Positions 6,089 through 28,591 of a stretch of DNA of 51,506 nt are shown here, piece after piece. The translations under genes were made by a program, and so were the position numbers. The notes beneath the pieces were generated by a model. That model did no database searches. It was given only the letters and a program-made list of their open reading frames with translations, and was not told the origin of the DNA. Source of the DNA: an uncultured Verrucomicrobiota bacterium (lineage in GTDB: Bacteria; Verrucomicrobiota; Kiritimatiellia; RFP12; UBA3636); NCBI GenBank assembly GCA_946534105.1, contig CAMNCG010000002.1, positions 1 to 51,506 of the forward strand. The letters run 5' to 3'. Position 1 is the first letter of the stretch. Each line of letters starts with the position of its first letter.

Positions 6089-6120
6089 CGCGCGGGCGCG
6101 GCGCAGCCGCCGCCCGCGCG
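6089..6120. repeat. GC-rich REP-like hairpin, copy 1
   Basis: cgcgcgggcg-cggc-gca-gccg(c)-cgcccgcgcg forms a 14-bp stem with one bulged C and a GCA loop. The same architecture recurs at six more intergenic sites in the window. Confidence 0.8.
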
Positions 6121-6200: not shown

Positions 6201-7298
6201 TCCCCGCTCTCCGAGTATCTCGTTGCCAAGGAGCCCGGCCGCCGCGAGCGCGCGGAGAACTGGCGCGTCGCGATCGGGCTGCAGAAGGTCGACGGCCTCG
6301 AGGTCTCGCCGTATCTCGTCAAGACCGCCCGGCGCAACATCGAAGGAGAAATATCCGCCGAGGACGCCCGACGCATTGTCCGACAATACTACGAGGAGAA
6401 ACCACCCGGGGCCGATCCCGAGGCTCACGGAGAGGCGGACCACACTTCGACGAACATCAACGCCATCCTCGCCGAGCCCGCGTTCCGCCTCTCCCCCGAA
6501 TACTACCTCGGCCTCCACCGCCGCATCTTCGCGGGCGTGTTCCCCTTCGCCGGGAAACTCCGCACCGTCAACCTCACGAAGAAGGAATGGGTGCTCGACG
6601 GCGAGACCGTCCACTACACGCCCTTCACCGAAATCGCCGCCTCGCTCGACTGGGACTTCCGGAACGAGCGAGAGTATCGCTATCCAGCGCGCGACAAGGC
6701 CGCGCTCGTCGCCCACTTCGCCGCGTTCGTCTCCGGGCTCTGGCAGATCCATCCCTTCCGCGAAGGCAACACCCGCACCGCCGCCGTCTTCGCCGCCAAG
6801 TACCTCCGCGAACTCCGCTTCAAGAACGTCTCCAACGAGCCCTTCGCCGAACACGCCTGGTTCTTCCGCAACGCGCTCGTCCGCGCCAACTACGAAGACC
6901 TTGCGCATGGCATCGAACGCACCACCGCTCCCCTCGAGGCCTTCTTCCGCAACATCCTCCTCGGCGAAAGGAACGAACTCAAGAACCGCTATCTCCATAT
7001 CCGCGCCGCGGAGTTAGGCTTGGTTGCGCCGATCGGCGCAACCAAGCCGGATGTCACAATAAATGTCACAATAAACGACACAATACAACTGACGGACATC
7101 GAACGGAAGATTGCGGCGATTCTACGGAAAACACCGACAACGACACGTGCGGAACTGTCCGTGGAATCGGGATTGAGTTCCCGCCAGATCCAACGCATCC
7201 TCGACTCCCTCAAAACCAAGATGGGCCTTCGCCGCGTCGGCTCGCGCAAGACCGGCCGCTGGGAGTTCCCGCCCCACCCCCGCCACATAATCCACTAA
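6132..7298 (+). CDS. Fic-family protein (HPFREGNTR core) with N-terminal VbhA-like segment and C-terminal winged-helix domain
   Basis: The Fic motif HPFxxGNxR is present as HPFREGNTRT. The N-terminal NWRVAIGLQKVDGLEVSPYLVKTARRNIEGEIS resembles the antitoxin-like module fused to some Fic proteins (from memory). The C-terminal ...SSRQIQRILDSLKTKMGLRRVGSRKTGRWEF is wHTH-like. GTG at 6132 is the only in-frame start. Confidence 0.8.
   Translation: MSPRSSLHRPSPASASAPPAAAPSPLSEYLVAKEPGRRERAENWRVAIGLQKVDGLEVSPYLVKTARRNIEGEISAEDARRIVRQYYEEKPPGADPEAHGEADHTSTNINAILAEPAFRLSPEYYLGLHRRIFAGVFPFAGKLRTVNLTKKEWVLDGETVHYTPFTEIAASLDWDFRNEREYRYPARDKAALVAHFAAFVSGLWQIHPFREGNTRTAAVFAAKYLRELRFKNVSNEPFAEHAWFFRNALVRANYEDLAHGIERTTAPLEAFFRNILLGERNELKNRYLHIRAAELGLVAPIGATKPDVTINVTINDTIQLTDIERKIAAILRKTPTTTRAELSVESGLSSRQIQRILDSLKTKMGLRRVGSRKTGRWEFPPHPRHIIH
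7051..7086 (+). repeat. 3 x 12-nt in-frame tandem repeat (atgtcacaataa) in the Fic linker
   Basis: The units are atgtcacaataa / atgtcacaataa / acgacacaatac. They encode (D)VTINVTINDTI just before the C-terminal wHTH and form an AT-rich patch in a GC-rich gene. Confidence 0.85.
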
Positions 7299-7306
7299 CC
7301 CGCACC

Positions 7307-7335
7307 TCGCGGGCGCGGCGCAGCCGCGCCCGCGA
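7307..7335. repeat. GC-rich REP-like hairpin, copy 2
   Basis: tcgcgggcgcggc-gca-gccgcgcccgcga is a perfect 13-bp stem with a GCA loop, lying between the Fic stop (7298) and the RhuM-like ATG (7349). Confidence 0.85.
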
Positions 7336-7348
7336 CAAAGCGCCCTCC

Positions 7349-7885
7349 ATGAAACCGCCTTCCCACACTCCTTCCGAAACGCCCGTCGCCCTCTACCGGA
7401 CCGAGGACGGCACCGTCCGCGTCTCTGCGCTTGTCCAAGACGAAACCCTGTGGCTCACGCAAGTCGCGATGGCCGTCCTGTTTGACTGTTCGCCCGAAAA
7501 CGTCATCCAGCACCTGAAGAACATATTCGGCGACGGAGAACTCGACGAATCGGCAACTGCTAAGGATTTCTTAGTAGTTCGACAAGAGGGAAAACGCAAG
7601 GTCTCCCGCACGCTCAAGCACTACAACCTCGACGCCATCATCGCCGTCGGCTACCGGGTGAATTCCCGTCGCGCGACGCAATTCCGCATCTGGGCCACGA
7701 AGAGCGTCAACGAGTTCATCGCCTTCCGCCGCTACCAGGTTCTTCCCGACAACGCGCGCGGCAAGGTCGCGCGCGTCGACGCCGAAGACCGCGCCCTCGG
7801 CGAATACGAGATCTTCAACCGCACCCAGCGCATCGACTCCGACTTCGACAAGCTCGTCCGTGCGTCCTCCCACCCCGCCACATAA
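7349..7885 (+). CDS. RhuM-family protein (short form)
   Basis: VALYRTEDGTVRVSALVQDETLWLTQVAMAVLFDCSPENVIQHLKNIFGDGELDESATAKDFLVVRQEGKRKVSRTLKHYNLDAIIAVGYRVNSRRATQFRIWAT matches the RhuM N-terminal pattern I remember (...ETVWLTQ.QMA.LF......I..HI.NIF.EGEL......K.F.......GK.....YNLD.IISVGYRV.S..GT.FR.WAT). I start it at ATG 7349 and do not use the 432-aa ORF-track extension. Confidence 0.8.
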   Translation: MKPPSHTPSETPVALYRTEDGTVRVSALVQDETLWLTQVAMAVLFDCSPENVIQHLKNIFGDGELDESATAKDFLVVRQEGKRKVSRTLKHYNLDAIIAVGYRVNSRRATQFRIWATKSVNEFIAFRRYQVLPDNARGKVARVDAEDRALGEYEIFNRTQRIDSDFDKLVRASSHPAT

Positions 7886-7903
7886 CCCACTAGCCTGCTC
7901 CGC

Positions 7904-7928
7904 GCGGGAGCGGCGAGCCGCCGCCCGC
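7904..7928. repeat. GC-rich REP-like hairpin, copy 3 (imperfect)
   Basis: gcgggagcggcgagccgccgcccgc forms a 5-bp outer stem plus a 4-bp inner stem. It is identical to the copy at 11799-11823. Confidence 0.7.
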
Positions 7929-7930
7929 AT

Positions 7931-8012
7931 TCACTCCTCACCGTGTCCCCCCGCTCCTCCCTCCATCGCCCTTCCCCCGCCGGCGCGGCCGCACCGCCCG
8001 CGGAAGCGCCGG
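7931..8012 (+). repeat. leader repeat, copy 2 (contains the GTG of a 64-codon upstream ORF, 7943..8137)
   Basis: tcactcctcaccgtgtccccccgctcctccctccatcgcccttcccccgccggcgcggccgcaccgcccgcgg is nearly identical to 6121-6200. Confidence 0.75.
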
Positions 8013-8133
8013 TGCCTTTCTCTGAAGTCCGGCTCTCGGTCAGCGCCCACTACGCCAGGCAACCGAAATTCCCCACCCCTAGCCCCTCCCCTCCGCGCGG
8101 GCGTGGCGACGATTCGCCCAAAGGATTCTTAAC

Positions 8134-9540
8134 ATGAAGAAGTCTGAATCGCACAATGTCGAATACAAGCGAAGCTGGCACGACGAGTACCTGCGTTGGG
8201 TCTGCGGCTTCGCCAACGCGAAGGGCGGAACGATTTGGATCGGCATCGACGACGACAGGAGCATCGTCGGCGTCGCAAACGCCAAGAAGCTGATGGAGGA
8301 CGTTCCGAACAAAATCAAGGACACGATGGGGCTCGTGGTGGACGTTTCACTTGTAAGAAAGCGGCAAAAGGACATTGTCCGAATCGATGTCCCGGAAAGC
8401 GACTTTCCCGTGGCATACCATGGCGAGTACCATTATCGGACAGGATCGACAAAACAATTGCTGACAGGTTTCGCCCTCACGCAGTTTCTCTTCCACAAAA
8501 TGCACCTTTCGTGGGATTCCGTCGAGACCGTCAACAAATTGCGCGTCCGGGATTTCACGTTCAAACGCCTTCGATACCGTTTCGACGAGAGAATCCACAA
8601 AACGGTCACGGCGGCGGATTTCGTCTCTTTCGGACTGGCCACAAAATCCGGCGTTTTGACGAATGCGGGAGCCCTGTTGACGGATGACTGTCCGATTCCG
8701 CAATCCCGCCTTTTCTGCACGAGGTGGCTTGGCCTTGACAAATCGGCGGATTCCGCGGCCAGCCGCAAGGAGCACGGAAACCTTCTCGAACTGCTGGATC
8801 TGGCGGAAAGCTTCATCCGCACCCAGACGAACAGAGGTTGGATCAAGCGTCCGACCGAACGAGACAACTTCCCCGATTATCCCGAGCGGGCCGTGACCGA
8901 AGCTGTCGTCAATGCGCTCATCCACCGGGACTACACGATGTCGGGCAGCGAAGTTCACATCGATATTTTCGACGACCGCATTGAAGTGACTTCGCCCGGA
9001 GGCATGCCGGATGGTTCGCTTGTCCAGGATTTGGACATCATGAACATTGCGTCCGACAGGCGGAACGGCATTCTCGCAGACGTGTTCGACAGGCTCGATT
9101 ACATGGAGCGGGAGGGAAGCGGATTCAAGAAGATCGTCGCAGCATATACGGGCAAAATGGCCCGCAATCCATTGGGCGTCCGACCGGCATTTTACTCCTC
9201 CGTCGGCAGTTTTACGGTCACGTTGCCGAACCTGAACGGGCCTCGCGAGGCCGCAATCGAAAGAACCAACGGGCTTGCAGATGCCGGTGGTGGCGGCAAT
9301 CCTGTCGGCAATGTCGGTAATTCTGTCGGTAATGTCGGTAATCGTGTTTCCGGCGAAACTGACCTTGAACATCTAGTCCTTGAATGTCTGCGCGGCGACG
9401 CCAAGATGTCGGCGGCGAAGATTGCAAAACGAGCCAAAGTGACGACCCGAACGATCGAGCGCGTCTTTGTGAGGCTTCGGACTTCCGGGCACATTCTTCG
9501 TAAAGGCGGGACGCGTGGATCCTGGGAAGTCCGCGACTGA
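8134..9540 (+). CDS. AlbA_2 (Schlafen-like) / HATPase_c_4 / wHTH protein ('putative DNA-binding, divergent AAA' regulator family)
   Basis: The N-terminus SESHNVEYKRSW..EYLRWVCGFANAKGGTIWIGIDDD..IVGV is the AlbA_2 signature. The middle ...AVTEAVVNALIHRDY...GSEVHIDIFDDRIEVTSPGG is HATPase_c_4-like. The C-terminal MSAAKIAKRAKVTTRTIERVFVRLRTSGHILRKGGTRGSWEV is a wHTH. Confidence 0.8.
   Translation: MKKSESHNVEYKRSWHDEYLRWVCGFANAKGGTIWIGIDDDRSIVGVANAKKLMEDVPNKIKDTMGLVVDVSLVRKRQKDIVRIDVPESDFPVAYHGEYHYRTGSTKQLLTGFALTQFLFHKMHLSWDSVETVNKLRVRDFTFKRLRYRFDERIHKTVTAADFVSFGLATKSGVLTNAGALLTDDCPIPQSRLFCTRWLGLDKSADSAASRKEHGNLLELLDLAESFIRTQTNRGWIKRPTERDNFPDYPERAVTEAVVNALIHRDYTMSGSEVHIDIFDDRIEVTSPGGMPDGSLVQDLDIMNIASDRRNGILADVFDRLDYMEREGSGFKKIVAAYTGKMARNPLGVRPAFYSSVGSFTVTLPNLNGPREAAIERTNGLADAGGGGNPVGNVGNSVGNVGNRVSGETDLEHLVLECLRGDAKMSAAKIAKRAKVTTRTIERVFVRLRTSGHILRKGGTRGSWEVRD
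9298..9350 (+). repeat. in-frame tandem repeat aat(nnn)gtcgg(c/t) x4-5 in the linker
   Basis: The units are aatcctgtcggc aatgtcggt aattctgtcggt aatgtcggt aatcgtgtt. They encode NPVGNVGNSVGNVGNRV immediately before the C-terminal wHTH. Confidence 0.85.
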
Positions 9541-9615
9541 CGAAGATCAAAATGCCCGACAAGTTCAAGCCCCTTCCGCCCCTCGAGCGCGGCGAAGCCG
9601 CCCCGCATGCACTAG

Positions 9616-9692
9616 TCACTCTCACCGTGAACCCCCGCTCCTCCATCCATCGCCCTTCCCCCACGGGCGCGGCCGCGCCGCCCGCCGCGCCG
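9616..9692 (+). repeat. leader repeat, copy 3 (diverged)
   Basis: tcactctcaccgtgaacccccgctcctccatccatcgcccttcccccacgggcgcggccgcgccgcccgcc aligns with the other copies. A GTG at 9627 opens a 29-codon ORF ending at TGA 9714-9716. Confidence 0.65.
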
Positions 9693-9741
9693 CCCGCAGA
9701 CCTCGTCGCTGAATGAAACCGATGAAAACCCGCAAGGTCCA
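9675..9741. repeat. 67-nt conserved intergenic motif, copy 1
   Basis: gcgccgcccgccgcgccgcccgcagacctcgtcgctgaatgaaaccgatgaaaacccgcaaggtcca aligns without gaps to 12843-12909, with about 10 mismatches by eye. Confidence 0.7.
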
Positions 9742-9802
9742 TGTCGAAATCGACCTCTCCGCTCCCGTCACGCCCACCACCCCCTGACCCACGACCCGCC
9801 TC

Positions 9803-9827
9803 GCGGGCGCGCCGCCGCTGCGCCCGC
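9803..9827. repeat. GC-rich hairpin (REP-like variant)
   Basis: gcgggcgc-gccgccgct-gcgcccgc is a perfect 8-bp stem, preceded by the same cctcgcggg context as other copies. Confidence 0.6.
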
Positions 9828-9882
9828 ACGACCTCACACCTCCCACCTCTCCCGACATCCAGTCCTTCCTCGTTTTCATGCA

Positions 9883-11781
9883 ATGAAACAAATCGTCCTT
9901 GAATGCAAGTGCCGCACGTTCAAAAGCGAACGAACCATCGTCATCCCCCCCCTCTGGACGGCACGGCCGCTCCACCGCGCCCTGCAGAAGGCGTTTGGCT
10001 GGGAAAACGATCATGCTTTCTGGTTCAAAAGGTCACCAACCGTCTTTTGTTCCGGAAATCCAGTGGACAACACCGAATCACGAGGCGTTTCGTTCGCCGA
10101 TCCGCTGGAGCGACTCTTTCCCGAAATCGGCTCGCGGCTGCTCTACGTCTATGACGGCGGGGACGAAAACGAAGTCGTACTCGTGCGACGCGAGGATGCG
10201 GAAGGAGACAAGCCAGCCTGCCTCTCGGCGTCCGGGCTCATGGCCGTCGAGGATTCGTCGCAGTACGGATATGTCGATGGGATTGCGGACGATGTCCGCA
10301 AATCGATGGCGGACGGCCACTGGGACCGAATTCCCGAGGAATTTGAAATCGGAAGCCGTGCGGATGCCGAGGCGTGGCTCCGCGATAGGGAGCCCGATCT
10401 CGCGTCCATATCACGCGACCTCGCAAAAATCCCCTTCCGACCGGAATCGGACTGTTACGATCCTCCCGAACGGAATGAAATGCCTTTCTTCCGCGGTTTT
10501 CCTGGACTGGACCGGAACGACGACGAAGAAATCCTCGACGGGAAAGACGTATCCGACGAAATCTTTCTGGCGAATGCCCCGCGTCTTCCTCCGGATCCCG
10601 TTCCGCTGGCCGAACTCGCGCACCGTGCAGAAGCGGGAGATCGCGCCGCGCTGGTCGAACTTGCCGACCGTTCGGTGCGCTATCTCCACTCCGACGCCGA
10701 CGAATGCCGCGATCTCCCGGTAATCCTGCGCGGGCTCTTCCGCGCCGTCGCCGAAGGGGACGTCGCGGCCAAGGCATCCGCCGGAAGACTGCTCGTCAGC
10801 GCCTACATGGTTCCGGCGCGGGCGCGCTTGCGGGGATGGCTGCTCCTGCGGGAAGCCGCAGACGCCGGCATCGCCGCCGCATGGGACGCGCTTGGACGGC
10901 AGGCCCTCGACTGGATTCTCGTCGACGGCTCCTACTCCGAACTGGAGAAGATCGAGCCGGACCGTTCCCTGTTGCCCAGATTCGACGACTTGAAGGATTT
11001 CGCCGTGTCCTGTTTCCGGAACGCCGTCGAAAACGGCTGCCCATCCGGATGGAACGGCCTCTTCTGGGCTGCGGAGGAAGGAATCGGGACTCCGTCGGGA
11101 AATCGGGATCCCGGCTTTGCCCTCGAATGCGCGCTCAAAGGCGCGGAAGCGGGTGATTCGCACTCCAGCTTCCACGCCGGCTTCAAACTCCTCGACTCGC
11201 AGGACGGAACGGACGAGGACATCCTTTCCTGTCACAAACGCGGACTGGAACTGGTGCTGCAAGGAGCGGAAGCCGCCGCCCCGGACATGGACGACGCCAT
11301 CGAACTGGCGAACCGGATGGACGATTGGCGGAAATTCGGACGGGTTGCGGACCATTCCGTTTCCGCACGCCGGTGCGACGCCGCCATGGCGCGCATCAAC
11401 CAGATCGATAACGACTTTTCCGGACGCAGATCCAGCGAAGTCGAGGAGGAGAACCGGAAACTCCGCAATGCGTGGATCAACGCATTCTCCGTCCTCAACA
11501 ACGGTCCCGATCCGGCGCTGGAAGAAGGCAGACGACTGCTCTCGCTCCCGGACGCCACGCCGAAGCAGTTGCGCGAAGGATTCCGCCTCGTCCGCGAGTC
11601 GGCCGAAAGGAACGGCTCGGCGGCCGTTTGGCGGGAACTGGCGTCCTGCTATGAAACCGGGCGAGGCATTTACCGCAACAAGAACCGCGCGCGCGACTGC
11701 ATCAAGAACGCGGAACGTGTCGAAGCCCGCCTGGCCGCCGCCGCGGCTTTCGCGGCCTCCCCACCGGAATCCGACTCGTAA
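9883..11781 (+). CDS. MM3350-like (pRiA4b ORF-3 family) N-terminal domain fused to Sel1/TPR-like repeats
   Basis: The N-terminus ...PLHRALQKAFGWENDHAFWF...LLYVYDGGDENEVVLV follows the PF07929 pattern (LH..IQ.AMGW.D.HLH.F ... F.Y.YDFGD.W.H.I). The C-terminal part has Sel1-like units (e.g. LASCYETGRGIYRNKNRARDCIKNA). Confidence 0.6.
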   Translation: MKQIVLECKCRTFKSERTIVIPPLWTARPLHRALQKAFGWENDHAFWFKRSPTVFCSGNPVDNTESRGVSFADPLERLFPEIGSRLLYVYDGGDENEVVLVRREDAEGDKPACLSASGLMAVEDSSQYGYVDGIADDVRKSMADGHWDRIPEEFEIGSRADAEAWLRDREPDLASISRDLAKIPFRPESDCYDPPERNEMPFFRGFPGLDRNDDEEILDGKDVSDEIFLANAPRLPPDPVPLAELAHRAEAGDRAALVELADRSVRYLHSDADECRDLPVILRGLFRAVAEGDVAAKASAGRLLVSAYMVPARARLRGWLLLREAADAGIAAAWDALGRQALDWILVDGSYSELEKIEPDRSLLPRFDDLKDFAVSCFRNAVENGCPSGWNGLFWAAEEGIGTPSGNRDPGFALECALKGAEAGDSHSSFHAGFKLLDSQDGTDEDILSCHKRGLELVLQGAEAAAPDMDDAIELANRMDDWRKFGRVADHSVSARRCDAAMARINQIDNDFSGRRSSEVEEENRKLRNAWINAFSVLNNGPDPALEEGRRLLSLPDATPKQLREGFRLVRESAERNGSAAVWRELASCYETGRGIYRNKNRARDCIKNAERVEARLAAAAAFAASPPESDS

Positions 11782-11798
11782 CAACCCGGCTCATCCGC

Positions 11799-11823
11799 GC
11801 GGGAGCGGCGAGCCGCCGCCCGC
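11799..11823. repeat. GC-rich REP-like hairpin, copy 4
   Basis: Identical 25-mer to 7904-7928. Confidence 0.7.
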
Positions 11824-11831
11824 CCCAACCC

Positions 11832-11928
11832 TTCACTCTTCACTCTTCACTCCTCACCGTGCTCCCCCTATCCTCCCTCCATCGCCCTTCCCCCGCCGGC
11901 GCATCCGTGCCGCCCGCGGCCGCGCCGT
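11832..11928 (+). repeat. leader repeat, copy 4 (with 3 x ttcactc at its 5' edge; contains the GTG start of the core-less Fic paralogue)
   Basis: ttcactcttcactcttcactcctcaccgtgctccccctatcctccctccatcgcccttcccccgccggcgcatccgtgccgcccgcgg aligns with the other copies. Confidence 0.75.
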
Positions 11929-12614
11929 CGCCGCTCTCCGAGTATCTCGTTGCCAAGGAACCCGGCCGCCGCGAGCGCGCGGAGAACTGGCGCGTCGCGA
12001 TCGGGCTGCAGAAGGTCGACGGCCTCGAGGTCTCGCCGTATCTCGTCAAGACCGCCCGGCGCAACATCGAAGGAGAAATATCCGCCGAGGACGCCCGACG
12101 CATTGTCCGACAATACTACGAGGAGAAACCACCCGGGGCCGATCCCGAGGCTCACGGAGAGGCGGACCACACTTCGACGAACATCAACGCCATCCTCGCC
12201 GAGCCCGCGTTCCGCCTCTCGCCCGAGTACTACATCGGCCTCCACCGCCGTATCTTCGCGGGCGTGTTCCCCTTCGCCGGAAAACTCCGCACCGTCAATC
12301 TCACGAAGAAGGAATGGGTGCTCGGCTTGGTCGCACCGCCCGCAAGCGGTGTGAACAAGCCGGATGTCACAAATCATGTCGGGATAAATGTCGGGATAAA
12401 TGTCGGGATAAAACTCTCCCCACAAGAGCAACGCGCGAAGGACCTTCTCGTTGCCGATCCGACACTATCCGCCCCGAAACTCGGCGCTCGGCTGGGCGTC
12501 ACCGGACGCCAGGCCGAGCGCATCGTTTCCTCCCTCAAAACCAAGTCTGGCCTTCGCCGCGTCGGCTCCCGCAAGACCGGCCGCTGGGAGTTCCCGTCCC
12601 ACCCGGCCACCTAG
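11859..12614 (+). CDS. Fic paralogue lacking the Fic catalytic core (VbhA-like N-terminus + repeat linker + wHTH only)
   Basis: The first about 155 codons are almost identical to 6132..6597. After KEWVL the sequence jumps in frame to GLVAP..., which in the full-length copy follows ...AAEL at about 7013. No HPFxxGNxR motif remains, and the reading frame is intact. Confidence 0.75.
   Translation: MLPLSSLHRPSPAGASVPPAAAPSPLSEYLVAKEPGRRERAENWRVAIGLQKVDGLEVSPYLVKTARRNIEGEISAEDARRIVRQYYEEKPPGADPEAHGEADHTSTNINAILAEPAFRLSPEYYIGLHRRIFAGVFPFAGKLRTVNLTKKEWVLGLVAPPASGVNKPDVTNHVGINVGINVGIKLSPQEQRAKDLLVADPTLSAPKLGARLGVTGRQAERIVSSLKTKSGLRRVGSRKTGRWEFPSHPAT
12364..12411 (+). repeat. 4 x 12-nt in-frame tandem repeat (atgtcgggataa)
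   Basis: The units are atgtcacaaatc / atgtcgggataa x3. They encode DVTNHVGINVGINVGI just before the wHTH domain. Confidence 0.9.
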
Positions 12615-12671
12615 ATTCCGACATGACCAAGCACGCCACCCATCTGACCCCCTAGCCCAAGCCTGCTCCGC

Positions 12672-12697
12672 GCGGGCGCGGCGCGGCCGCCGTCCGC
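12672..12697. repeat. GC-rich REP-like hairpin, copy 5
   Basis: gcgggcgcggc-gcg-gccg(c)cgtccgc has the same stem / bulged-C / triloop architecture as copy 1, with one G-T pair. Confidence 0.7.
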
Positions 12698-12842
12698 AGC
12701 GGAATCCCGAATCCCGCCGTCCTGTCCACCCCGCGCTGGTTGTTCGACGGAAAACTCGTACCGGCGGCGCCGGTCGTCGTCGCCGAAGAGGAGCCCGGCG
12801 GCGCCTCCTCCTCGCCCCGCCGTCCGCCCCGTTCCGAGCGAC

Positions 12843-12909
12843 GCGCCGCCCGCCGCGCTTCCCGCAGGTTCCGTCGCTGAATAAAACCGAAACGAACCCG
12901 CAAGGTCCA
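12843..12909. repeat. 67-nt conserved intergenic motif, copy 2
   Basis: gcgccgcccgccgcgcttcccgcaggttccgtcgctgaataaaaccgaaacgaacccgcaaggtcca ends 19 nt before the ATG at 12929. Confidence 0.7.
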
Positions 12910-12928
12910 CAACCGCGCGACACGCGCC

Positions 12929-13561
12929 ATGAAACTTGCCGTTCTCTCCGATCTCCACGGTTACATCCCCTCGCCCGCCGCGCAGGCGATTGTCGACAAG
13001 GCCGACATCATCTGCATCTGCGGCGACATCCAGAGCCGAGCGATGCACTCCTTCGCGTGGATCAACGCGCAGAGGAAACCCGTAATCCTCGTCCCGGGAA
13101 ACCACGACTGGTTCCTCTTTGATCCCGCCGGCGCGGCCTCCAACTGGGGATTCGGTCCGCACGTCCGCGTCCTGATCGACGGCGGCTGCGAACTGGACGG
13201 CGTCCGCTTCTGGGGAACGCCGTGGTCGCCGATCTTCTTCGACTGGGCGTTCATGCTCCCGCCCGGCGACCTCCGCGAAAAATACGCGAAGATCCCCGAA
13301 GGGATCGACGTTCTGCTCGCCCATTCCCCGCCGCGAATCCCGCGCAGCCGCATCGACATGGTGGAAGGCCGCCGCGACCATTGCGGCTCGGCCGAACTCG
13401 CCGAAGCCGTCCTCCGCGCCCAACCCCGCCACCTCTTCTGCGGCCACATCCACACCGGCGACCACACCCCCGTCCGCCTCGGCTCCTCCCTCTGCCGCAA
13501 CGTCTCCTACCTCAATGAGCAGTACGCCCCCGCCTTCCTTCCCGCCACGCTCGTAATCTGA
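12929..13561 (+). CDS. metallophosphoesterase (calcineurin-like)
   Basis: The ordered motifs of the family are present: LSDLHG, CGDI, VPGNHD, LLAHSPP, GSAEL and CGHIHTG. Confidence 0.8.
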   Translation: MKLAVLSDLHGYIPSPAAQAIVDKADIICICGDIQSRAMHSFAWINAQRKPVILVPGNHDWFLFDPAGAASNWGFGPHVRVLIDGGCELDGVRFWGTPWSPIFFDWAFMLPPGDLREKYAKIPEGIDVLLAHSPPRIPRSRIDMVEGRRDHCGSAELAEAVLRAQPRHLFCGHIHTGDHTPVRLGSSLCRNVSYLNEQYAPAFLPATLVI

Positions 13562-13703
13562 CCCCTTTGCCCCCCGCATCTGCTAGAATCCTGCCGAAAA
13601 CGGCTGAAAACATACTGAAACCCACTTCCGATCCCCGACTACCCCATCGGCCGAAACTTCGAGTCCGAGGGAGGACTGCCCATGGAATATGATTCCACTT
13701 GTC

Positions 13704-15440: not shown

Positions 15441-15977
15441 ATGACCCATCTCGTGTCCGAGAACCCCGTCGCGCAGGCGGTGGGCTTCGTGGCGCTCGGC
15501 GTCACGGTGCTGAGCTACCAGGCCCGCACGACGCGCGGGATCGCCCTGCGACAGGCGGCCGGCAACTTCTTCTGGACGACGCATCTGCTGCTTCTGGGCG
15601 CATGGACTGGCGGCCTGCTCAACGCCCTTGGGCTCGCCCGCGGCGCGGTCTACTCGCAGCGCGGCGCCCGCGCGTGGGCTTCGCGTCCGTTCTGGCCGTG
15701 GCTTTTCAGCGCGCTCTGCGTCGGCGCCGCCGCGTTCGCCGGGCTCTCGCAGGGCGAGGGACCGCGGCTTCTGCTCTCCGCGACCGCACAGTGCATCGGC
15801 TGCTACGCGCTCTGGACGCCCCGCGTCCGCCGCGCCCGGCTCCTGCTGCTCCTCGTCAGCCTCCTCTGGCTCGCCTACGACGCCCTCTCCGGCTCCCTCC
15901 CAGGAACCGCCTGCGAGCTCTTCAGCGAAGCCTCGATCCTCCTGGCCATCGCCCGCGACCGCCGCGCGCGCCGCTAG
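15441..15977 (+). CDS. YgjV-family inner membrane protein
   Basis: The protein is multi-TM, with an N-terminus ...NPVAQAVGFVALGVTVLSYQARTTRGIALRQAAGNFFWTTHLLLLGAWTG typical of YgjV-like proteins (from memory). Confidence 0.6.
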   Translation: MTHLVSENPVAQAVGFVALGVTVLSYQARTTRGIALRQAAGNFFWTTHLLLLGAWTGGLLNALGLARGAVYSQRGARAWASRPFWPWLFSALCVGAAAFAGLSQGEGPRLLLSATAQCIGCYALWTPRVRRARLLLLLVSLLWLAYDALSGSLPGTACELFSEASILLAIARDRRARR

Positions 15978-16510
15978 TCCAACGGGCAGTCGCCGCAGAA
16001 CGCGCGTCGCCCGCAATCGCGGCAGAAGGCTCCCCGCCAGACAGCATCGAACTGTTCGGCAAGCGGCCCGACAATGGTCGGCTCGTCGGTGAGGACGCCG
16101 TTCTCGAAGTTGCGATTTCTTGCGCTCTTGGCGCCCATCCCCGCGCCCGTGAGGTTCGCCGATCCGAAATACGCCTTCACGCCGTCGACGATGATGCACT
16201 TGAAGTGGACGCGCGGACAAAGAACTCGTTCCATCCCGGACCAGAGACCGGGATAGCGGTCGAAGTCCTCGCGCCAGTTCGGCCCAGGCTCCTTCGCATG
16301 GACGAGCCGCACCTCCACCCCGCGCCCGATCAGGTCGGCGAGCACCTTCACGAACGGCACCATCCGGTCCGACCCCGGCGCCGTCTCGACATAGAGGTCC
16401 TTGATGTCCGCCGTGGCGATCCACACCCGCCGCGCCGCCCTCGGCACGGCGTCGCGGATCACGCGCTCGTAGATCGCCCGATCGGATAGAAAGGTCATCA
16501 TGCGGAACAT
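15974..16510 (-). CDS. single-HKD phospholipase D-family (Nuc-like) protein with C-terminal Cys cluster
   Basis: The HKD motif HFKCIIVDGVKAYFGSANLT (HxK-x4-D-x6-GSxN) occurs once. The C-terminus is FCRDCGRRAFCGDCPLD. ATG 16510 lies 4 nt after the upstream stop, and its stop overlaps the convergent ygjV-like stop (CTAG at 15974-15977). Confidence 0.75.
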   Translation of the reverse strand: MFRMMTFLSDRAIYERVIRDAVPRAARRVWIATADIKDLYVETAPGSDRMVPFVKVLADLIGRGVEVRLVHAKEPGPNWREDFDRYPGLWSGMERVLCPRVHFKCIIVDGVKAYFGSANLTGAGMGAKSARNRNFENGVLTDEPTIVGPLAEQFDAVWRGAFCRDCGRRAFCGDCPLD

Positions 16511-16514
16511 CCTA

Positions 16515-17561
16515 TCACGGTGCTGCTCCGGAAACAATCGCGAACTGCCCGGCCCGGTCACAATCGCAGGCGAACTGGGGCTGCGCCTTGAGGATGGTCG
16601 TCCAGTCGTTGCCATTCAGCTTCCGCCAATCGCATCGGGCGGCGAACTCCGGTCGCCCTGCGATCACGTTCGCCCAGTCGTGGCGACTGAGCGTTCGTGC
16701 GTCGCATCGGTCCACGAACTGCGGCTGCCAGGCCAGCAATGCGCGCCAATCCTCCTTTCCGATCTTTTCCCAGTCGCATCGGTCGGCGAACTGCGGCTGG
16801 TGCGAAAGAAGGAGCGTCCATTCGGAACCGCCGAATTCGCTCCAGAGGCCGCATCGATCCGCCAGTTCCGGTTGCCGGGCCAGCATCCACGCCCATTGCC
16901 GGCGGTCGAATTCTTCCCACTTGTCGCACCGGCCGGCGAACTGCGGCTGTTTTTGGAGCAGGAAGTGCCAGTCCTGCGCGGACAGTTCCGTCCACTTGTC
17001 GCATCGGTCGGCAAACTGCGGCTGCCTGCACAGGACATTCGCCCAGTTGGACGCATCGAACCGGTTCCGGAAGTTCAGTCGGTCGGCGAACTGCGGCAGG
17101 AACGAAACGACCCGCTCCACATCGAATGCCGAGCACGCGATCGTCTGTCGCGCGAACTTGCTTTCCTTGCGCATCAGCGCCGACAGTAGGCGTCCGAGCC
17201 CGCTTCGTTCCGTCTTTCTCCAGTCGCATCGGTCGGTCAACTGCGGAGAATCCATCAGAAGGCAGCACCAGTTCTCTCCGGAGATCTTCGACCAGTCGCA
17301 TCGGTCCGCGAAACGAAGGTCCTCACGTAAAAGAGACATCCAGTCGTTGCGGGCGAGCCTCGACCAGTTGCACCGGCCGGCGAACTGCGGCTGCCTCCCG
17401 AGAAGCCAGGCCCAGCACACTCCGTCCATCTCGCCCCACTTGTCGCACCGATCGGCGAATCGCGGCTGCGCGGCGAGCAGTTCGGCCCAGTTCCTTCCGG
17501 AAAGCGTCACCCAGCCGAGTCCGGTCGTGGGCCGGATCGTTTTGGATTCAAGTGTTTTCAT
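16515..17561 (-). CDS. tandem-repeat protein, about 12 units of a 24-25-aa W-x2-LL-x2-QPQFA-x-RCDW repeat (family not recognised)
   Basis: Representative units are WAELLAAQPRFADRCDKWGEMDGVC, WAWLLGRQPQFAGRCNWSRLARND, WMSLLREDLRFADRCDWSKISGEN, ... WTTILKAQPQFACDCD. One central unit is degenerate. The ATG at 17561 forms an ATGA overlap with the upstream small ORF. Confidence 0.7.
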   Translation of the reverse strand: MKTLESKTIRPTTGLGWVTLSGRNWAELLAAQPRFADRCDKWGEMDGVCWAWLLGRQPQFAGRCNWSRLARNDWMSLLREDLRFADRCDWSKISGENWCCLLMDSPQLTDRCDWRKTERSGLGRLLSALMRKESKFARQTIACSAFDVERVVSFLPQFADRLNFRNRFDASNWANVLCRQPQFADRCDKWTELSAQDWHFLLQKQPQFAGRCDKWEEFDRRQWAWMLARQPELADRCGLWSEFGGSEWTLLLSHQPQFADRCDWEKIGKEDWRALLAWQPQFVDRCDARTLSRHDWANVIAGRPEFAARCDWRKLNGNDWTTILKAQPQFACDCDRAGQFAIVSGAAP

Positions 17562-17755
17562 CTGCCCCCAGAACGGTTGCGACGGTTTCCGCCGAAAGGA
17601 AGACGCTTGAAAACTGGCCATACTGCCGAACGGTCCCGGCCGCCGCTCACGGCGGTCGTGCGGGTCTTGAGCAGGTTGTCCAAGAAGCGGAGCGCGTGCT
17701 TCGCTTCGAACTGGAGTGTGGGATGGATGGGATGCAGGGAGGTTTTCGTTTCCAT
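17558..17755 (-). CDS. 65-aa ORF whose first ~39 aa are paralogous to the N-terminus of the 28592..29407 protein
   Basis: METKTSLHPIHPTLQFEAKHALRFLDNLLKTRTTAVSGG aligns with MNTAPSIHPIHPTLQFEARHALRFLDNLLRTRTTSVSGG, and the rest is unrelated. Its stop overlaps the next ATG. It may be a duplicated 5' gene fragment rather than a functional protein. Confidence 0.4.
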   Translation of the reverse strand: METKTSLHPIHPTLQFEAKHALRFLDNLLKTRTTAVSGGRDRSAVWPVFKRLPFGGNRRNRSGGR

Positions 17756-17828
17756 GTCGTGGAGTTCTCTGTTTGGGGGTTCTCTGTTTCCGAGTTGTGC
17801 CGGCGGATTCACCGCCGCAACCGCTCAT

Positions 17829-17844
17829 CGCAATCCCCATGCCA
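17829..17844 (-). promoter_or_regulatory. sigma-54 (-24/-12) promoter candidate
   Basis: The minus strand reads TGGCATGGGGATTGCG against the consensus TGGCACG-N4-TTGCW. It lies 74 nt upstream of ATG 17755. Confidence 0.65.
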
Positions 17845-17854
17845 ACAGGAAAAC

Positions 17855-17881
17855 GGGCCGGAAACGCATCGTTTCCGGCCC
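17855..17881 (-). terminator. hairpin GGGCCGGAAACG-N3-CGTTTCCGGCCC followed by TTTTCC on the minus strand
   Basis: A 12-bp perfect stem lies 38 nt downstream of the stop of the 17919..18620 gene. The T-run merges into the sigma-54 promoter. Confidence 0.65.
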
Positions 17882-17918
17882 AGACCTGTTCAGAATTTAT
17901 GCAACTGGTCAAAAAAAA

Positions 17919-18620
17919 TCATCTCACAAAATGCCGCGCCACATCATTCCAGCACAGCCCGAGTTCGTTCGTCCGGTAGGGATCGGCGCCCATGTCTACA
18001 AGGACGCGCGCCGTCTTTGGACAGGCGAAGCCCCCCTCCCCATTCTGGTCGTCCCGATAGGTCAGATACCACAAAATTCCGTTTCCACGAACGTCGATGA
18101 AGTCGCGTATGTCAGGAACATCGAATCTTTTCCGCAGAATACTGGCGAGAACGTCGTCCTTGACGCGCACCAAGAACGCAATCAGATATTGCCGGTTTAA
18201 AATCCCCACTGGTTCGGGAACGGGAACGATGCCGTCGAGTTCGTGTCCGGATAGGGTTGGCAGCAAATCTTCCCATCCGGGAAGCCATTGTCGGATCTTC
18301 CACCGGCGCATGGCCACAGCATCCGCGAATGCCCGTTGGACAACGGGGTTTTCCATGACATCCCCCTGCAGTAGCGCGTCCACGTTCCACCAGAAATGCG
18401 AATAGCGGACGACGCGCCACAGCGCCGCCTTTGCCGCATGCGGCAAAGGCGACGTGATTGCGTGGGCGAAAAACGAGAGCCGTTCCCCTTCCGGCAATCT
18501 ACGCAAGGCCGGCTTTAACGCACGCTCTATGCTACGCTCGTCGGGACTGGACTCAATGTCATGGAGGAAAGGGCGGATGTCAAGTGGCATATCCGGAAGT
18601 CGGGCATCGGAGGTTTTCAT
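17919..18620 (-). CDS. hypothetical protein with a possible C-terminal ankyrin-like repeat
   Basis: I recognise no family. RGNGILWYLTY...TARVLVDMGADPYRTNELGLCWNDV loosely fits the ANK consensus (G.T.LH.A......V..LL..GAD.N..D..G.T). Confidence 0.5.
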   Translation of the reverse strand: MKTSDARLPDMPLDIRPFLHDIESSPDERSIERALKPALRRLPEGERLSFFAHAITSPLPHAAKAALWRVVRYSHFWWNVDALLQGDVMENPVVQRAFADAVAMRRWKIRQWLPGWEDLLPTLSGHELDGIVPVPEPVGILNRQYLIAFLVRVKDDVLASILRKRFDVPDIRDFIDVRGNGILWYLTYRDDQNGEGGFACPKTARVLVDMGADPYRTNELGLCWNDVARHFVR

Positions 18621-18653
18621 GGAGGGGTGCTGTGAATCGCGCAGATTCCCAAT

Positions 18654-18669
18654 TGCGACCTCCGTGCCA
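18654..18669 (-). promoter_or_regulatory. sigma-54 (-24/-12) promoter candidate
   Basis: The minus strand reads TGGCACGGAGGTCGCA (-12 element TCGC instead of TTGC). It lies 34 nt upstream of ATG 18620. Confidence 0.5.
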
Positions 18670-18680
18670 AGGCGAATAAT

Positions 18681-18706
18681 GGGCCGGAAACTGGCGGTTC
18701 CGGCCC
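18681..18706 (-). terminator. hairpin GGGCCGGAA-N8-TTCCGGCCC (same family as 17855 and 18992)
   Basis: A 9-bp stem, 30 nt downstream of the stop of the 18736..18927 ORF. The following tract on the minus strand (cattattcg) is only weakly T-rich. Confidence 0.45.
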
Positions 18707-18735
18707 CGCTATTGTATCAATTGTTGATCATCTGC

Positions 18736-18927
18736 TCAAAAACCGCGCATTTGGAGGGCGGCCGGATCGACCGGCCCGTCCGGACCGTGTAGGAGAAACG
18801 CCCCGGCCAGAGCGAGCGCCGCGCAGAAGGCCCCTTCGGCAATGACGAAGATCTGTCCCGTCCGCTGCCGCCTCGCCGGCGGCGTTTCGGGATTCGGTGA
18901 TGGAGGTTGTTCGGTTGGTGTTTGCAT
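18736..18927 (-). CDS. 63-aa hypothetical small membrane protein
   Basis: The ATG is preceded by cgAAAGGAatcc. The product MQTPTEQPPSPNPETPPARRQRTGQIFVIAEGAFCAALALAGAFLLHG... has one hydrophobic helix. It sits between a sigma-54-like promoter and a hairpin. Confidence 0.35.
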   Translation of the reverse strand: MQTPTEQPPSPNPETPPARRQRTGQIFVIAEGAFCAALALAGAFLLHGPDGPVDPAALQMRGF

Positions 18928-18964
18928 GGATTCCTTTCGGTTTGGTGGGTTCCCCCCACCCGGA

Positions 18965-18980
18965 AGCACCCGCCATGCCA
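18965..18980 (-). promoter_or_regulatory. sigma-54 (-24/-12) promoter candidate
   Basis: The minus strand reads TGGCATGGCGGGTGCT (-12 element GTGC). It lies 38 nt upstream of ATG 18927. Confidence 0.45.
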
Positions 18981-18991
18981 ACACGCAAAAG

Positions 18992-19015
18992 GGCCGGAAA
19001 CGAGCGTTTCCGGCC
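18992..19015 (-). terminator. hairpin GGCCGGAAACG-AG-CGTTTCCGGCC followed by CTTTTG on the minus strand
   Basis: An 11-bp perfect stem about 170 nt downstream of the McrC-like stop. It is the third member of the hairpin-plus-promoter cassette. Confidence 0.6.
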
Positions 19016-19183
19016 TTGAATTGTTCAGATTTCAAGCGGCCGGTGAACTATTGCGCAAGTCACCATTAGGACACCGTGAAAACAGTGTGTCATCGCGTCA
19101 AGATGGGCAATGAGGTTCGCCGGAGCATTTTCAATGGAAAACAATGATCATCTGCCTGTTCCATGTTATCACAGTGCGACAGC

Positions 19184-26284: not shown

Positions 26285-28234
26285 TTACGGGTTGACCGGA
26301 ACGCGGTACTTGAGCAGCGAGGCGAAGGCGTTCGCCACGGCGGCCAGGCTGCCGCGAAGCTTTTCTGAAAAGGCGTCGGAAACGAGTTCGTCGTGGTCCT
26401 TGAAGGGAACCGTGATGTTCCACCAGATGTTCTCCGGACGATGCCCGATGTTCTTGTCAACGGCGGCGCTGACGGCGAAAGGAGCCCATGCGGCGCAGTA
26501 GGCGGCTTCCGCCGCCGCAAGGTCGGTCTGGATGTCCGAAGCTGCGAAATCGATGCGAAAGCGCTCCTTCGGCGTGTTCCCCCAAAATTCGCCCCAGATT
26601 TTGAGCTGGAACGAGGAACCATCGTGGAAGACGCGGAAGGTCAGAAGGCCAAGGTAATTCCGGTTCTCGGCAATTCCGGAGAGCGGAGACATCCAAAACG
26701 TGGCCGCCAGATTGCTCACGACCTTCGACTGCTCCGATGTGATGGCGCCGGCTCCGTCGAAATCCGCCCCGAAACCCTTTTTCAGCCCTTTCATGCCAAG
26801 TGTTTTGTCGCGAAGGTCTTTCAGGTATTGCGATTTGCTGAAGTTCTCCGGCGTCGCCGCCTGAGCGGGTTCGCTCTTGACGTTCGTGACGGCCGAGAGG
26901 CGCATGAGCCATTCAACCGTTTCGCCGACGGTTTCATTCTGGTTCGCCGCCGCAACGCGTGTCTTTATGCGGTTCAGGATACGCGAGATGTTCAGCGCAC
27001 GCGCTTTGAGGAACGTGTCACGACTGCAGAAACGGAACAGCATCTGCTCCCATGGCTCGTCGAATTCGGTCATCGCCTTGAGCTTCTCCGCCTCACCTGT
27101 CGCGAGTGCCGGGAGGTCTTCCCGTTGCGCGAAGGCTTCGCCCCAGTTTGGAAAGTTCGGCTCGGCGAGAAGCGCGTCATAGACCTTCGGGTACTGAATC
27201 TGGAGGCTCACGAGCGCGAACAGAACATCCTTCCACTTCGCGAAATCGGCGTCGTCCTGCTTGTCCGTTGTCCGGGCGATGACCAGTTTGATGAGAGAGA
27301 GGTAGTTGATGAGGCGCTTGAGCGAGCGCGGGTTCGTTCCGACGGAATCAAGCGCGTAGGCGGTGATCGCTTCGCAGAGCGACTTATCGCCCTTCTCCTT
27401 CGCGTCGAGATAGCCAATCTCAACGAGCGAGCCCATCAGGAAATCGTCAATCGTGTAGTTGGCGACGGGCATGGAGAAGGGAAGCTGGATGATCTTGTCG
27501 AAGAAGGAGCGGAACTCGCGCTCGTTGGCCGCCGTCATTTCGCCGAACTTCGGCTTGAGGCCCTTCACGACGACGCCGTAGTCAATGGCGAGGACGAAGA
27601 TGCAGTGCGGGATGTCGAAGATGTTCTTCAGCAATTCGAGAATCTGGACGGCCACGGGCGGGTCGATGCGGTCGAGGTCGTCGATGAAGAAGAGAAAGCC
27701 GTGCTTGCCCGGCGCCTTCTGCAATGCGTCATTGACCAACTTGGCGAGTTTGTCCTTGAGATCCTCGACGCCTGACTTCGTCACATCGTTGCCGTTGGCA
27801 CTCCACTCCTTTACGTTCTTTTCGAGATCGACACCGCTATACTTCTTGAAGATGTCCGACACGACCCCGCCGCCCACGCGGGCGATTCTGCAGAGCAGTC
27901 TGGTTCTCTCCTCGTCGCTGGTCTTGGCGATGGAGGATACCTGTCCGATGATGCCGGAGAGGATGTTGAGGATCGCTTCATCCGGGTTCGACATCAGGGC
28001 GTATTGCCATGTGTTGATCCATACGCCGAGATAGGGGGCTTCGCCAGCATCAACGAGCCGGGCTTTGAGCGCGTTCATGAGGGATGTCTTGCCGCTGCCC
28101 CACTCGCCCTGGAGGGCGATGGTGAGGGGCGACTGGGCGTTTTGGATGAACTCCACAAGCGCGTCGGCGTAAGCGCCCATGTGGAGCCGATCTTCATCCG
28201 CCTTGGCGGGTTGGTCAACGACATTGGTGTTCAT
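26285..28234 (-). CDS. KAP-family P-loop NTPase (no obvious TM insert)
   Basis: The N-terminal DRLHMGAYADALVEFI...PLTIALQGEWGSGKTSLMNAL (Walker A) and HGFLFFIDDLDRIDP (Walker B) form the KAP NTPase signature. Confidence 0.8.
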   Translation of the reverse strand: MNTNVVDQPAKADEDRLHMGAYADALVEFIQNAQSPLTIALQGEWGSGKTSLMNALKARLVDAGEAPYLGVWINTWQYALMSNPDEAILNILSGIIGQVSSIAKTSDEERTRLLCRIARVGGGVVSDIFKKYSGVDLEKNVKEWSANGNDVTKSGVEDLKDKLAKLVNDALQKAPGKHGFLFFIDDLDRIDPPVAVQILELLKNIFDIPHCIFVLAIDYGVVVKGLKPKFGEMTAANEREFRSFFDKIIQLPFSMPVANYTIDDFLMGSLVEIGYLDAKEKGDKSLCEAITAYALDSVGTNPRSLKRLINYLSLIKLVIARTTDKQDDADFAKWKDVLFALVSLQIQYPKVYDALLAEPNFPNWGEAFAQREDLPALATGEAEKLKAMTEFDEPWEQMLFRFCSRDTFLKARALNISRILNRIKTRVAAANQNETVGETVEWLMRLSAVTNVKSEPAQAATPENFSKSQYLKDLRDKTLGMKGLKKGFGADFDGAGAITSEQSKVVSNLAATFWMSPLSGIAENRNYLGLLTFRVFHDGSSFQLKIWGEFWGNTPKERFRIDFAASDIQTDLAAAEAAYCAAWAPFAVSAAVDKNIGHRPENIWWNITVPFKDHDELVSDAFSEKLRGSLAAVANAFASLLKYRVPVNP

Positions 28235-28591
28235 TTCCGTTTGTCTCCGATTGTCAGGGTGTGACGCCCCTGCCGCAGACGAAGAAGAAAGAGGCGCGTC
28301 TCCGGGAGTCTCTCCGAGGGAGGCACGGCCAAGCGCCTGGCGAAGAAAGCAAGCCGAAGGCGCGCCCTAGGGGCGCAGACCATCGGGCGTGCTTCTTCGC
28401 ATTCGGAAAGTTTGGCCGTTTTCCCTCGGAAGAAACGCTCATGGATCGAGTGTCGCCGGGCGGTTGACCCGGCGGAGAGAACTCTACCACAACCCGGGTC
28501 CGCCGTGCAAGGACAAATCGGACTTGCACGGCGAACCGGCTCCGGGCGGCCTTCGGCTTGCAAGGGGATCGACATCGGTTTCCCCGCCCGG

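Follow-up and report, generated by a model that had tools for sequence, protein, structure and literature searches.

The window analysed here is a 51,506-nt stretch of DNA from an uncultured Verrucomicrobiota bacterium, and our subject is a composite intergenic element, from here on the junction module, of which three copies lie on its minus strand at 17830–17913, 18655–18740 and 18966–19048, each comprising a GC hairpin followed by TGGCAYGG-N4-NYGC. Read along that strand, module 3 begins 136 nt after the McrC stop codon and precedes an open reading frame (ORF) of 63 aa (18736–18927), module 2 precedes the ORF of a 233-aa protein (17919–18620), and module 1 precedes a 65-aa ORF (17558–17755), after which come the genes for a 348-aa Trp/Cys-repeat protein (16515–17561) and a 178-aa PLD-family protein (15974–16510), the last of the array. 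The three minus-strand repeats announced in a preliminary description of this DNA are present, and their boundary, moved some 30 nt upstream, now takes in a conserved motif, TTTGAsC-N3-TG-N9-TGA, which that description had not listed and which a repeat finder and alignments reveal in each unit. It is probable, in our assessment, that the three units are members of a lineage-wide family of ~85-nt junctions in the defence islands of uncultured bacteria, and this assessment includes a mechanism gated by an activator.

Downstream of the motif the window units read GGCCGGAA(A/C)C, a 4–5 nt loop, GTTTCCGGCC, a short T-containing tail and TTGGCAYGG-N4-NYGC. Module 1 (83 bits, E 4.7e-21 with a covariance model) consists of motif TTTGACCAGTTGCATAAATTCTGAAC at 17913–17888, a hairpin at 17882–17854, a T-rich tail and promoter TGGCATGGGGATTGC at 17844–17830. 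Module 2 (64.7 bits with the same model) has motif TTTGAGCAGATGATCAACAATTGATA at 18740–18715, an imperfect hairpin at about 18708–18682 and promoter TGGCACGGAGGTCGC at 18669–18655, with the TGA of the motif's TTTGA serving as stop codon of the 63-aa ORF, and module 3 (61.1 bits) has the variant motif GTTCACCGGCCGCTTGAAATCTGAAC, a hairpin at 19015–18992 and promoter TGGCATGGCGGGTGC at 18980–18966. All three promoters, together with a fourth, TGGCACGTCCCTTGC at 29466–29480 (−), fit the GG/GC doublet spacing and the sigma-54 consensus TGGCAC-N5-TTGC, the −12 elements being weaker in copies 2 (TCGC) and 3 (GTGC, a form kept in relatives too). The exact half-site GGCCGGAAAC occurs seven times in the window, five of them inside the three hairpins; the sixth arm, in copy 2, is GGCCGGAACC and carries one mismatch to it, so that the hairpins, previously called perfect in each unit, are not all so. 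Allowing up to one mismatch, 21 half-sites were counted in the window versus 9.1 expected, and TGGCAYG-N6-GC was found five times versus 1.34 expected (0 of 100 shuffles reaching the observed number in either case); these five sites are the three copies, the promoter at 29466–29480 and one chance match inside a DUF4160-like ORF at 35138. The loop differs by 1 nt in length among the window copies. A pattern scanner classed the hairpins of copies 1 and 3 as terminator-like, the T tail of copy 2 being poor, and Rfam returned no family at gathering score. A run of eight T lies at 17911–17918 (−), between the stop of the 233-aa gene and the upstream motif of module 1; in relatives six or seven T stand in its place, making it a length-variable homopolymer outside the ORF.

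The same composite recurs widely in related DNA. A pattern scan of metagenome contigs, requiring TTTGA, TG, TGA and part of the promoter, returned at least 81 unique composites of 83–88 nt besides unrelated chance matches. An nhmmer profile gave 132 matches in 806 kb of related loci, and only two, both hairpin-only partial matches, in 892 kb of control loci that had been gathered with the hairpin alone; a covariance model (R1) gave 121 matches in 402 kb of related contigs. Contigs reached via the 271-aa protein that opens the window's island (see below) carry the composite several times, with like flanks and unrelated hairpin sequences. The family consensus is TTTGAnCnGnTGnTnAAAnnTTGAnC, hairpin, T-rich tail and (TGT)TGGCACGGAnnTTGCTA, and the promoter consensus TTGGCACGGAnnTTGCTA, drawn from 76 related copies among the matches listed (as are all figures on 76 copies below), agrees with that of sigma-54 at flanking positions also. 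The distance from TTTGA to TGGCA is 68–72 nt with a mode of 69 (search window 59–79), an ORF starting with ATG follows on the same strand 10–167 nt (median 37) after the −12 GC in 67 of the 76 copies, and in all 36 loci with two or more copies these are co-directional. Homologues of the Trp/Cys-repeat protein elsewhere have TGGCACG-N4-(T/A)TGC 50–65 nt before their start codons, in one contig with a different GC hairpin directly upstream of it. A position-weight matrix built from the junction promoters proved too specific and misses the promoter at 29466. The junction is thus a conserved tripartite element with fixed spacing, a covarying hairpin, a bias towards gene starts and an arrangement in co-directional arrays. 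The sigma-54-type promoter proposed at the outset is supported: it agrees with the extended consensus in more than 100 related copies, on the correct strand before ORFs and with a linked GAFTGA activator, and the hairpin directly upstream of it is likewise a constant feature.

These data bear on whether the units could be a generic dispersed repeat, that is, a selfish element resembling repetitive extragenic palindromes (REPs) or miniature inverted-repeat transposable elements and having no regulatory role. Such an element would explain the many copies, and in one locus (L248, 214–1275, +) an HUH-like ORF (PDHVHMQLH, Y1-transposase-like) does lie directly upstream of a junction, namely the one before an activator homologue, though as a single case. 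The strong bias of strand and position to gene starts argues otherwise, as do the lack of target-site duplications and terminal inverted repeats, the occurrence of the element only between cassettes of defence-type islands, and the fact that its most conserved part is a textbook sigma-54 promoter. We regard a dispersed repeat as scarcely credible; the preliminary description had named a repeat free of gene-start bias as one outcome that would undo its proposal, and the related loci display the opposite.

The hairpin is conserved as a structure. Folding of the 76 copies gave a mean of −22.9 kcal/mol and a mean z-score of −4.2, and their inner-arm 8-mers comprise 49 distinct sequences. Compensatory changes were found in 12 of 12 pairs, and paired cells amount to 78.8% versus 65.9% in shuffles (0 of 500 reaching the observed value), in a covariance-model alignment that is itself fitted to a model favouring pairing; the covariation score is 0.367 versus 0.08–0.15 for slid controls. 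RNAalifold found no structure on a MAFFT alignment, since there the arms of different hairpin types fall out of register. In keeping with what is expected of an intrinsic terminator, the GC-rich stem-loop follows a stop codon: in 92 of 106 copies an ORF spanning 60 codons or more terminates inside the motif or no more than 150 nt upstream of it. A scan of genome contigs with the hairpin alone hit 119 loci in many phyla, and TGGCAC followed in 0 of 218 occurrences; this wide spread marks the stem as a generic terminator-type sequence.

The preliminary description had also entertained the GGCCGGAAAC palindrome as the sequence to which the activator binds. In its favour, dyads are common targets of enhancer-binding proteins, and the three window copies have one and the same stem between diverged flanks. 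Yet one related locus (L128) carries both GGCCGGAAAC-type and GGAAGGCGC-type stems and another (L127) a third type, the 49 inner arms differ from one another, loop length shifts by 1 nt between the window copies, and the promoter beside the activator gene lacks this palindrome altogether. In addition, the same stem is common in many phyla as a terminator-type hairpin with TGGCAC never downstream, and its identity in the window is accounted for by recombination between junctions (discussed below). As hairpin sequence varies, even within single contigs, and pairing is kept by compensatory changes, the hairpin is not a fixed activator site, and we hold the palindrome reading to be very improbable.

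A better enhancer candidate, indeed the best, is the conserved upstream motif, TTTGAsC-N3-TG-N9-TGA(s)C in full form, which is the first part of the module. Within the window its exact pattern occurs three times, in modules 1 and 2 and at 29603–29625 (+), the latter between the activator gene and the divergent 271-aa gene. Upstream ORFs end just before or within the motif. The possibility that it encodes a conserved C-terminal peptide (FEQLxKx*) was considered and discarded: in 36 of 81 copies among the matches listed the frame is closed within three codons upstream, and the motif is therefore not coding.

A candidate for the protein acting on these promoters is encoded at the island edge. The gene at 29753–31324 (+) specifies a sigma-54 enhancer-binding activator of the AAA+ class with a Sigma54_activat domain (8.7e-62), a GAFTGA region reading GHAKGAFTGATEA, an HTH_8 domain and an N-terminal domain of ~210 aa, and the activator assignment made earlier for this gene, including the sigma-54-type promoter of its divergent neighbour, is borne out. 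That promoter, at 29466–29480 (−), serves the 271-aa gene (28592–29407, −) opening the island, and just upstream of it (about 29490–29545) lies the 10-bp inverted repeat CCGGACGGGC-N16-GCCCGTCCGG. On the other side, a diverged junction precedes the activator gene itself at 29602–29723 (+), scoring weakly with the covariance model (19.7 bits, E 5.7e-4 on the identical sequence of L126); its parts are motif ATTGACCGGATGCGCGAATATTGAGC at 29602–29627, a short hairpin CCCTGC-N8-GCAGGG at 29672–29691 and TGGCGCGGAACTTGCT at 29708–29723, 29 nt before the activator ATG at 29753. The N-terminal ~210 aa gave no Pfam match and has five close relatives only; its AlphaFold model is poor (pLDDT 54) and consists of four beta-alpha units followed by helices.

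Junction arrays beyond the window have GAFTGA activators associated with them too: activator homologues are linked to junctions in three related loci (L184, L248 and L250), and sigma-54 activators make up 2 of 38 cargo proteins behind junctions. In L248 a canonical junction stands directly before the activator homologue. The L250 activator is 79% identical over its full length and the L250 271-aa protein 55%, which indicates that the regulator is conserved better than the cargo. In L184 the activator homologue opens the array right after a housekeeping gene, and the promoter there is sigma-70-like (TGgTAGAAT), so that sigma-70-type promoter sequences also occur in this group. Some features around the activator gene vary. 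In the near-identical L126 (7533–9655; 29753–32162, +, in the window) it shares 4 nt with a downstream gene that encodes a 6-O-methylguanine-DNA methyltransferase DNA-binding domain (PF01035), an overlap suggestive of co-transcription; in L250 it is preceded instead by an overlapping 385-aa gene. L250 also has, at 6850–6975 (+), about 2.5 tandem 44-nt GC-rich repeats, each containing GGGCGC-N6-GCGCCC, immediately upstream of the sigma-54-type promoter TGGCACGCCCCGTGCT that opens the island there. These repeats and the inverted repeat at 29490–29545 in the window are possible candidate sites for the activator.

Taken together, the parts suggest how the module may work. The sigma-54 closed complex is known to depend on remodelling by an AAA+ activator. 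Judged from their sequences, the junction promoters would be sigma-54 dependent and silent without an activator, each holding its downstream cassette off until a GAFTGA AAA+ protein, most likely the one encoded at 29753–31324, remodels the closed complex. The upstream motif would be the enhancer site of this activator, which is the weakest step of the proposal, and the hairpin would end or insulate transcription arriving from the upstream cassette.

Several observations weigh against this reading. L127 and L128 showed no activator gene within 10 kb, and no RpoN box was found in the window or the related loci, which cover parts of genomes; the presence of rpoN is inferred from that of a GAFTGA activator. 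As to the motif, its TGA triplets double as stops (all three reading frames are closed in 72 of 106 copies), it lacks clear dyad symmetry, and it is only partly conserved in the divergent region by the activator gene of L250. Its conservation in the scan set arises in part by construction, because the pattern imposed those positions; 12 copies found free of the pattern constraint have the same upstream motif. For the hairpin, apart from the model-fitted alignment already mentioned, the T tract after the stem is weak (family mean 3.2 T in 8 nt), some ten copies have CTCAAATG in place of a T run, and at the first island promoter (29466) a GC-rich inverted repeat occupies the hairpin position with no co-directional upstream gene.

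Since there is nothing to terminate before 29466, the repeat there may have a promoter-related or DNA-structural role, and together with the weak T tracts it keeps alive a role of the palindrome in architecture. The hairpin or inverted repeat could then be part of the promoter, as a cruciform or an intrinsic bend replacing an IHF-type protein and bringing the activator bound ~70 bp upstream onto the sigma-54 closed complex, or, alternatively, an RNA 3′-end stabiliser. The spacing of motif and promoter, fixed at 68–72 nt despite variable stem length and sequence, suits the architectural version, and compensatory pairing would be needed by a DNA cruciform as well. Set against this are the terminator-like class given to copies 1 and 3, the position of each hairpin after the end of a co-directional ORF in the 92 of 106 copies noted above, and one housekeeping-gene terminator of the lineage (in L184) that likewise has no T tract; moreover, extrusion of a cruciform with 10–15-bp arms is energetically demanding. 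On balance we find an architectural or stabilising role unlikely, and retain, as the probable reading, an insulating hairpin within an activator-gated junction.

Comparison of relatives reveals how cassettes come and go. In three loci (L141, L201 and L207) the order is 63-aa region, junction, 233-aa gene, junction and full-length 271-aa gene, whereas in three others (L240, L194 and L236) the 233-aa gene is missing and only one junction is present. The left half of that junction in L240 and L194 corresponds to window copy 2 and the right half to copy 1, with the switch inside the hairpin. The 233-aa gene has thus been gained or lost by crossover inside the hairpin, and crossover between junctions accounts for the common stem of the three window copies. 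The last unit of the window consists of a junction, a 5′ untranslated region (UTR), 49 codons of a 271-aa family gene, ~86 nt, the repeat domain and the PLD gene, and would itself be the product of a junction-mediated rearrangement. With a copy of the module on either side of every cassette, homology is at hand by which cassettes could be gained, lost and fused.

A breakpoint inside the element, together with co-directional arrays, variable cassettes and a structured element combining conserved flanks with a variable hairpin, is also what one would expect if the units were attC-like recombination sites of a site-specific recombinase, TGGCAC...TTGC then being a site for the recombinase or an accessory protein and not a promoter. 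We consider this highly improbable. Neither the window nor the loci neighbouring the arrays yielded an integrase or other recombinase domain, and on direct reading the flanks of the element do not fit the attC core sites RYYYAAC/GTTRRRY. In its right flank the element fits the sigma-54 consensus at every key position, the arrays come with linked GAFTGA activators, and the crossover is as expected from ordinary homologous recombination between two repeats.

The genes behind the three junctions are a mixed set, and several of the earlier assignments needed amending. The 63-aa ORF, which had been put down as a membrane protein, has one hydrophobic segment and a DNA sequence conserved without indels in 11 junction-bearing loci (tblastn); its mismatches at codon positions 1, 2 and 3 number 59, 51 and 70, a third-position excess so weak that the coding status of the ORF is uncertain. 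The 233-aa protein belongs to a lineage-restricted conserved family (45–92% identity in 16 junction-bearing loci, tblastn) whose presence between junctions varies among relatives. It had been called ankyrin-like, a label that lacks statistical support: there was no Pfam match, ankyrin included, even at E ≤ 10, none in PADLOC or PDB, and with a nine-sequence profile nothing in PDB below E 0.6.

The 65-aa ORF is a 5′ remnant, corresponding to codons 1–49, of a 271-aa family gene. It keeps the junction, 5′ UTR and start of that gene, sharing its first ~40 residues and the DNA of the start region, and in relatives a full-length 271-aa gene stands in its place. A single gene broken into the 65-aa and 348-aa ORFs by a 1-nt frameshift was considered and rejected, given that in closer paralogues the match to the 65-aa frame extends through codon 49, and that residue 15 of the 348-aa ORF is the first to show homology to the repeat gene. 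The 348-aa protein is built of 24–25-aa Trp/Cys repeats (a period of 72–75 nt) and represents the C-terminal part of 476–549-aa proteins of relatives that join a GHKL-like domain to such repeats, the N-terminal domain being missing here. A few of these homologues, the nearest named relatives of this one cargo protein, are given as from Lentisphaeria or Kiritimatiellae metagenome-assembled genomes. The repeat, W..LL..QPQFADRCDW.K, belongs to no Pfam family; in relatives it is joined to varied N-terminal domains (GHKL-like, AAA/STAND-like and FGE-sulfatase), which suggests a modular sensor or binding domain.

The 178-aa protein is the sole array protein with a Pfam domain (PLDc_2, 1.6e-13). It has a single HKD motif of the form HxKx4Dx6GSxN, reading HFKCIIVDGVKAYFGSAN, and PADLOC matches to DrmC and MkoB, findings that support the single-HKD nuclease proposed earlier and predict an enzyme of defence type like DrmC and MkoB. 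Homologues occur in 18 junction-bearing loci (tblastn), exact-protein look-ups of the PLD and 233-aa proteins returned no match, and the stop of the 178-aa gene overlaps that of a convergent YgjV-like gene. The trio of 65-aa, 348-aa and 178-aa ORFs does have the ATGA overlap and 4-nt gap ascribed to it, but it is a chimera.

Upstream of the array, on the same strand, the island comprises the 271-aa gene and genes for a KAP NTPase (similar to PifA and PDC-S20), a zinc-finger protein, GmrSD (similar to HEC-06 and SspE), a Macro-domain protein with homologues in 19 junction-bearing loci (tblastn), McrB and McrC. The 271-aa family is narrow, with 51 clusters, and at 50% identity just one full-length cluster exists among 1.84 billion representatives. 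Conservation is highest over the first ~45 residues, and short N-terminal remnant ORFs are common in databases. The model of the protein is confident (pLDDT 80.6, pTM 0.80) and found no match in PDB or BFVD (best E about 0.4–1). Contigs carrying 271-aa homologues are defence islands, and junction cargo in relatives is of defence type, with several kinds of AAA ATPase (among them AAA_15/AAA_21 proteins similar to PtuA and AriA), PIF1/RecD-like helicases, FtsK/SspH-like proteins, Macro-domain proteins, histidine phosphatases, DnaA-C-type helix-turn-helix proteins and mad8-like proteins. The surmise that the locus is a defence module is supported in that it lies within a defence island (McrBC, GmrSD, KAP, PLD); the picture of a small regulon placed against an McrBC island does not, for the module is lineage-wide and the McrBC/GmrSD/KAP block is inside the same island.

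Some further features of the surroundings may be recorded. A gap of ~360 nt (28234–28592, −) separates the 271-aa and KAP NTPase genes; the 161-aa ORF that it holds shares sequence with the end of the 271-aa gene, gave no Pfam match and is not called in the near-identical L126. Beside the island stands a gene for an inosine-uridine nucleoside hydrolase, in the window (32858–34084, +) as well as in the distant relative L250 (14080–15117), so that the island may occupy a conserved chromosomal site. A second defence-like region lies on the plus strand at 600–13600, with low GC from about 1000 to 6000 (0.39–0.50), and contains a YhcG/DUF1016 nuclease, AbiH, a RhuM-family protein, Schlafen AlbA_2 with HATPase_c_4, PRiA4_ORF3 and a VbhA-like antitoxin domain; no junction modules were found in it.

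Anti-phage defence genes have mostly been treated as constitutive or as subject to local repressors that each act on a single system. We tentatively propose, as a possibility rather than the expected outcome, that the junction is a plug-in combination of enhancer, insulator and sigma-54 promoter wiring any defence cassette to one AAA+ activator that senses infection or stress, an arrangement free of integrase, integron-like and silent until induced, in which the same module offers homology for swaps, losses and fusions. If so, many unrelated and potentially toxic defence genes, among them those for a PLD nuclease, Macro-domain proteins, KAP and PtuA-like ATPases and helicases, would stand behind one tightly off module as a coordinated, inducible immune regulon, which new cassettes would join by carrying the standard junction, itself a driver of island turnover. 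The proposal offers parts amenable to testing, namely a short promoter module, a candidate enhancer motif and an activator with a candidate sensor domain at its N-terminus. The module is also a compact annotation marker that could reveal defence cargo in these uncultured lineages, even families without known relatives, the 271-aa, 233-aa and Trp/Cys-repeat proteins being examples.

The literature searched contained no paper linking sigma-54/RpoN to anti-phage islands or to Lentisphaerae, and a 2025 cross-phylum survey of sigma-54 regulons makes no mention of restriction, CRISPR or these phyla. We know of no other case in which one standard module is copied between unrelated defence cassettes and serves as recombination junction besides. 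Comparison with known systems suggests that the parts (sigma-54 promoters, enhancer-binding activators, terminator-like hairpins, defence islands) are familiar and the packaging is new. With sigma-54 systems such as NtrC at glnAp2 and PspF at pspA the junctions share the −24 GG/−12 GC elements and TGGCAC-N5-TTGC consensus, a nearby GAFTGA AAA+ activator with HTH_8, a candidate enhancer ~70–95 bp upstream and, apparently, a sigma-54-type promoter for the activator gene itself. They differ in that enhancer candidate, hairpin and promoter are packed into one ~85-nt unit copied between unrelated defence cassettes, in the lack of an evident IHF-like site, and in an activator whose N-terminal domain matches nothing in Pfam.

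Integron attC arrays resemble the junction arrays in their co-directional cassettes of one to a few genes, structured boundaries in which pairing is conserved above sequence, and a cassette content that differs between close relatives. Unlike integrons, the islands have no integrase and no attC core sites, exchange fits homologous recombination, and in place of a common Pc promoter an activator-dependent promoter would stand at every junction. Intrinsic terminators, bidirectional ones included, are matched in the GC stem-loop right after a stop codon, often with A-rich 5′ and T-rich 3′ flanks extending the stem; here, in contrast, T tracts are on average weak, the stem-loop stands at a fixed position relative to the next promoter, and an equivalent inverted repeat is present where there is no upstream gene. 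REPs and bacterial interspersed mosaic elements are likewise short repeated intergenic palindromes between co-directional genes, but REPs have a conserved stem, a RAYT transposase and no built-in promoter, whereas in the junctions the stem varies and the flanks are conserved. Finally, the WYL-domain regulators BrxR and CapW share with the present activator a gene beside defence genes and a presumed coupling to a signal. Regulators of that type repress individual systems by acting at their sigma-70 promoters; in the present islands many unrelated cassettes would be turned on by an ATP-dependent activator via a standard promoter module.

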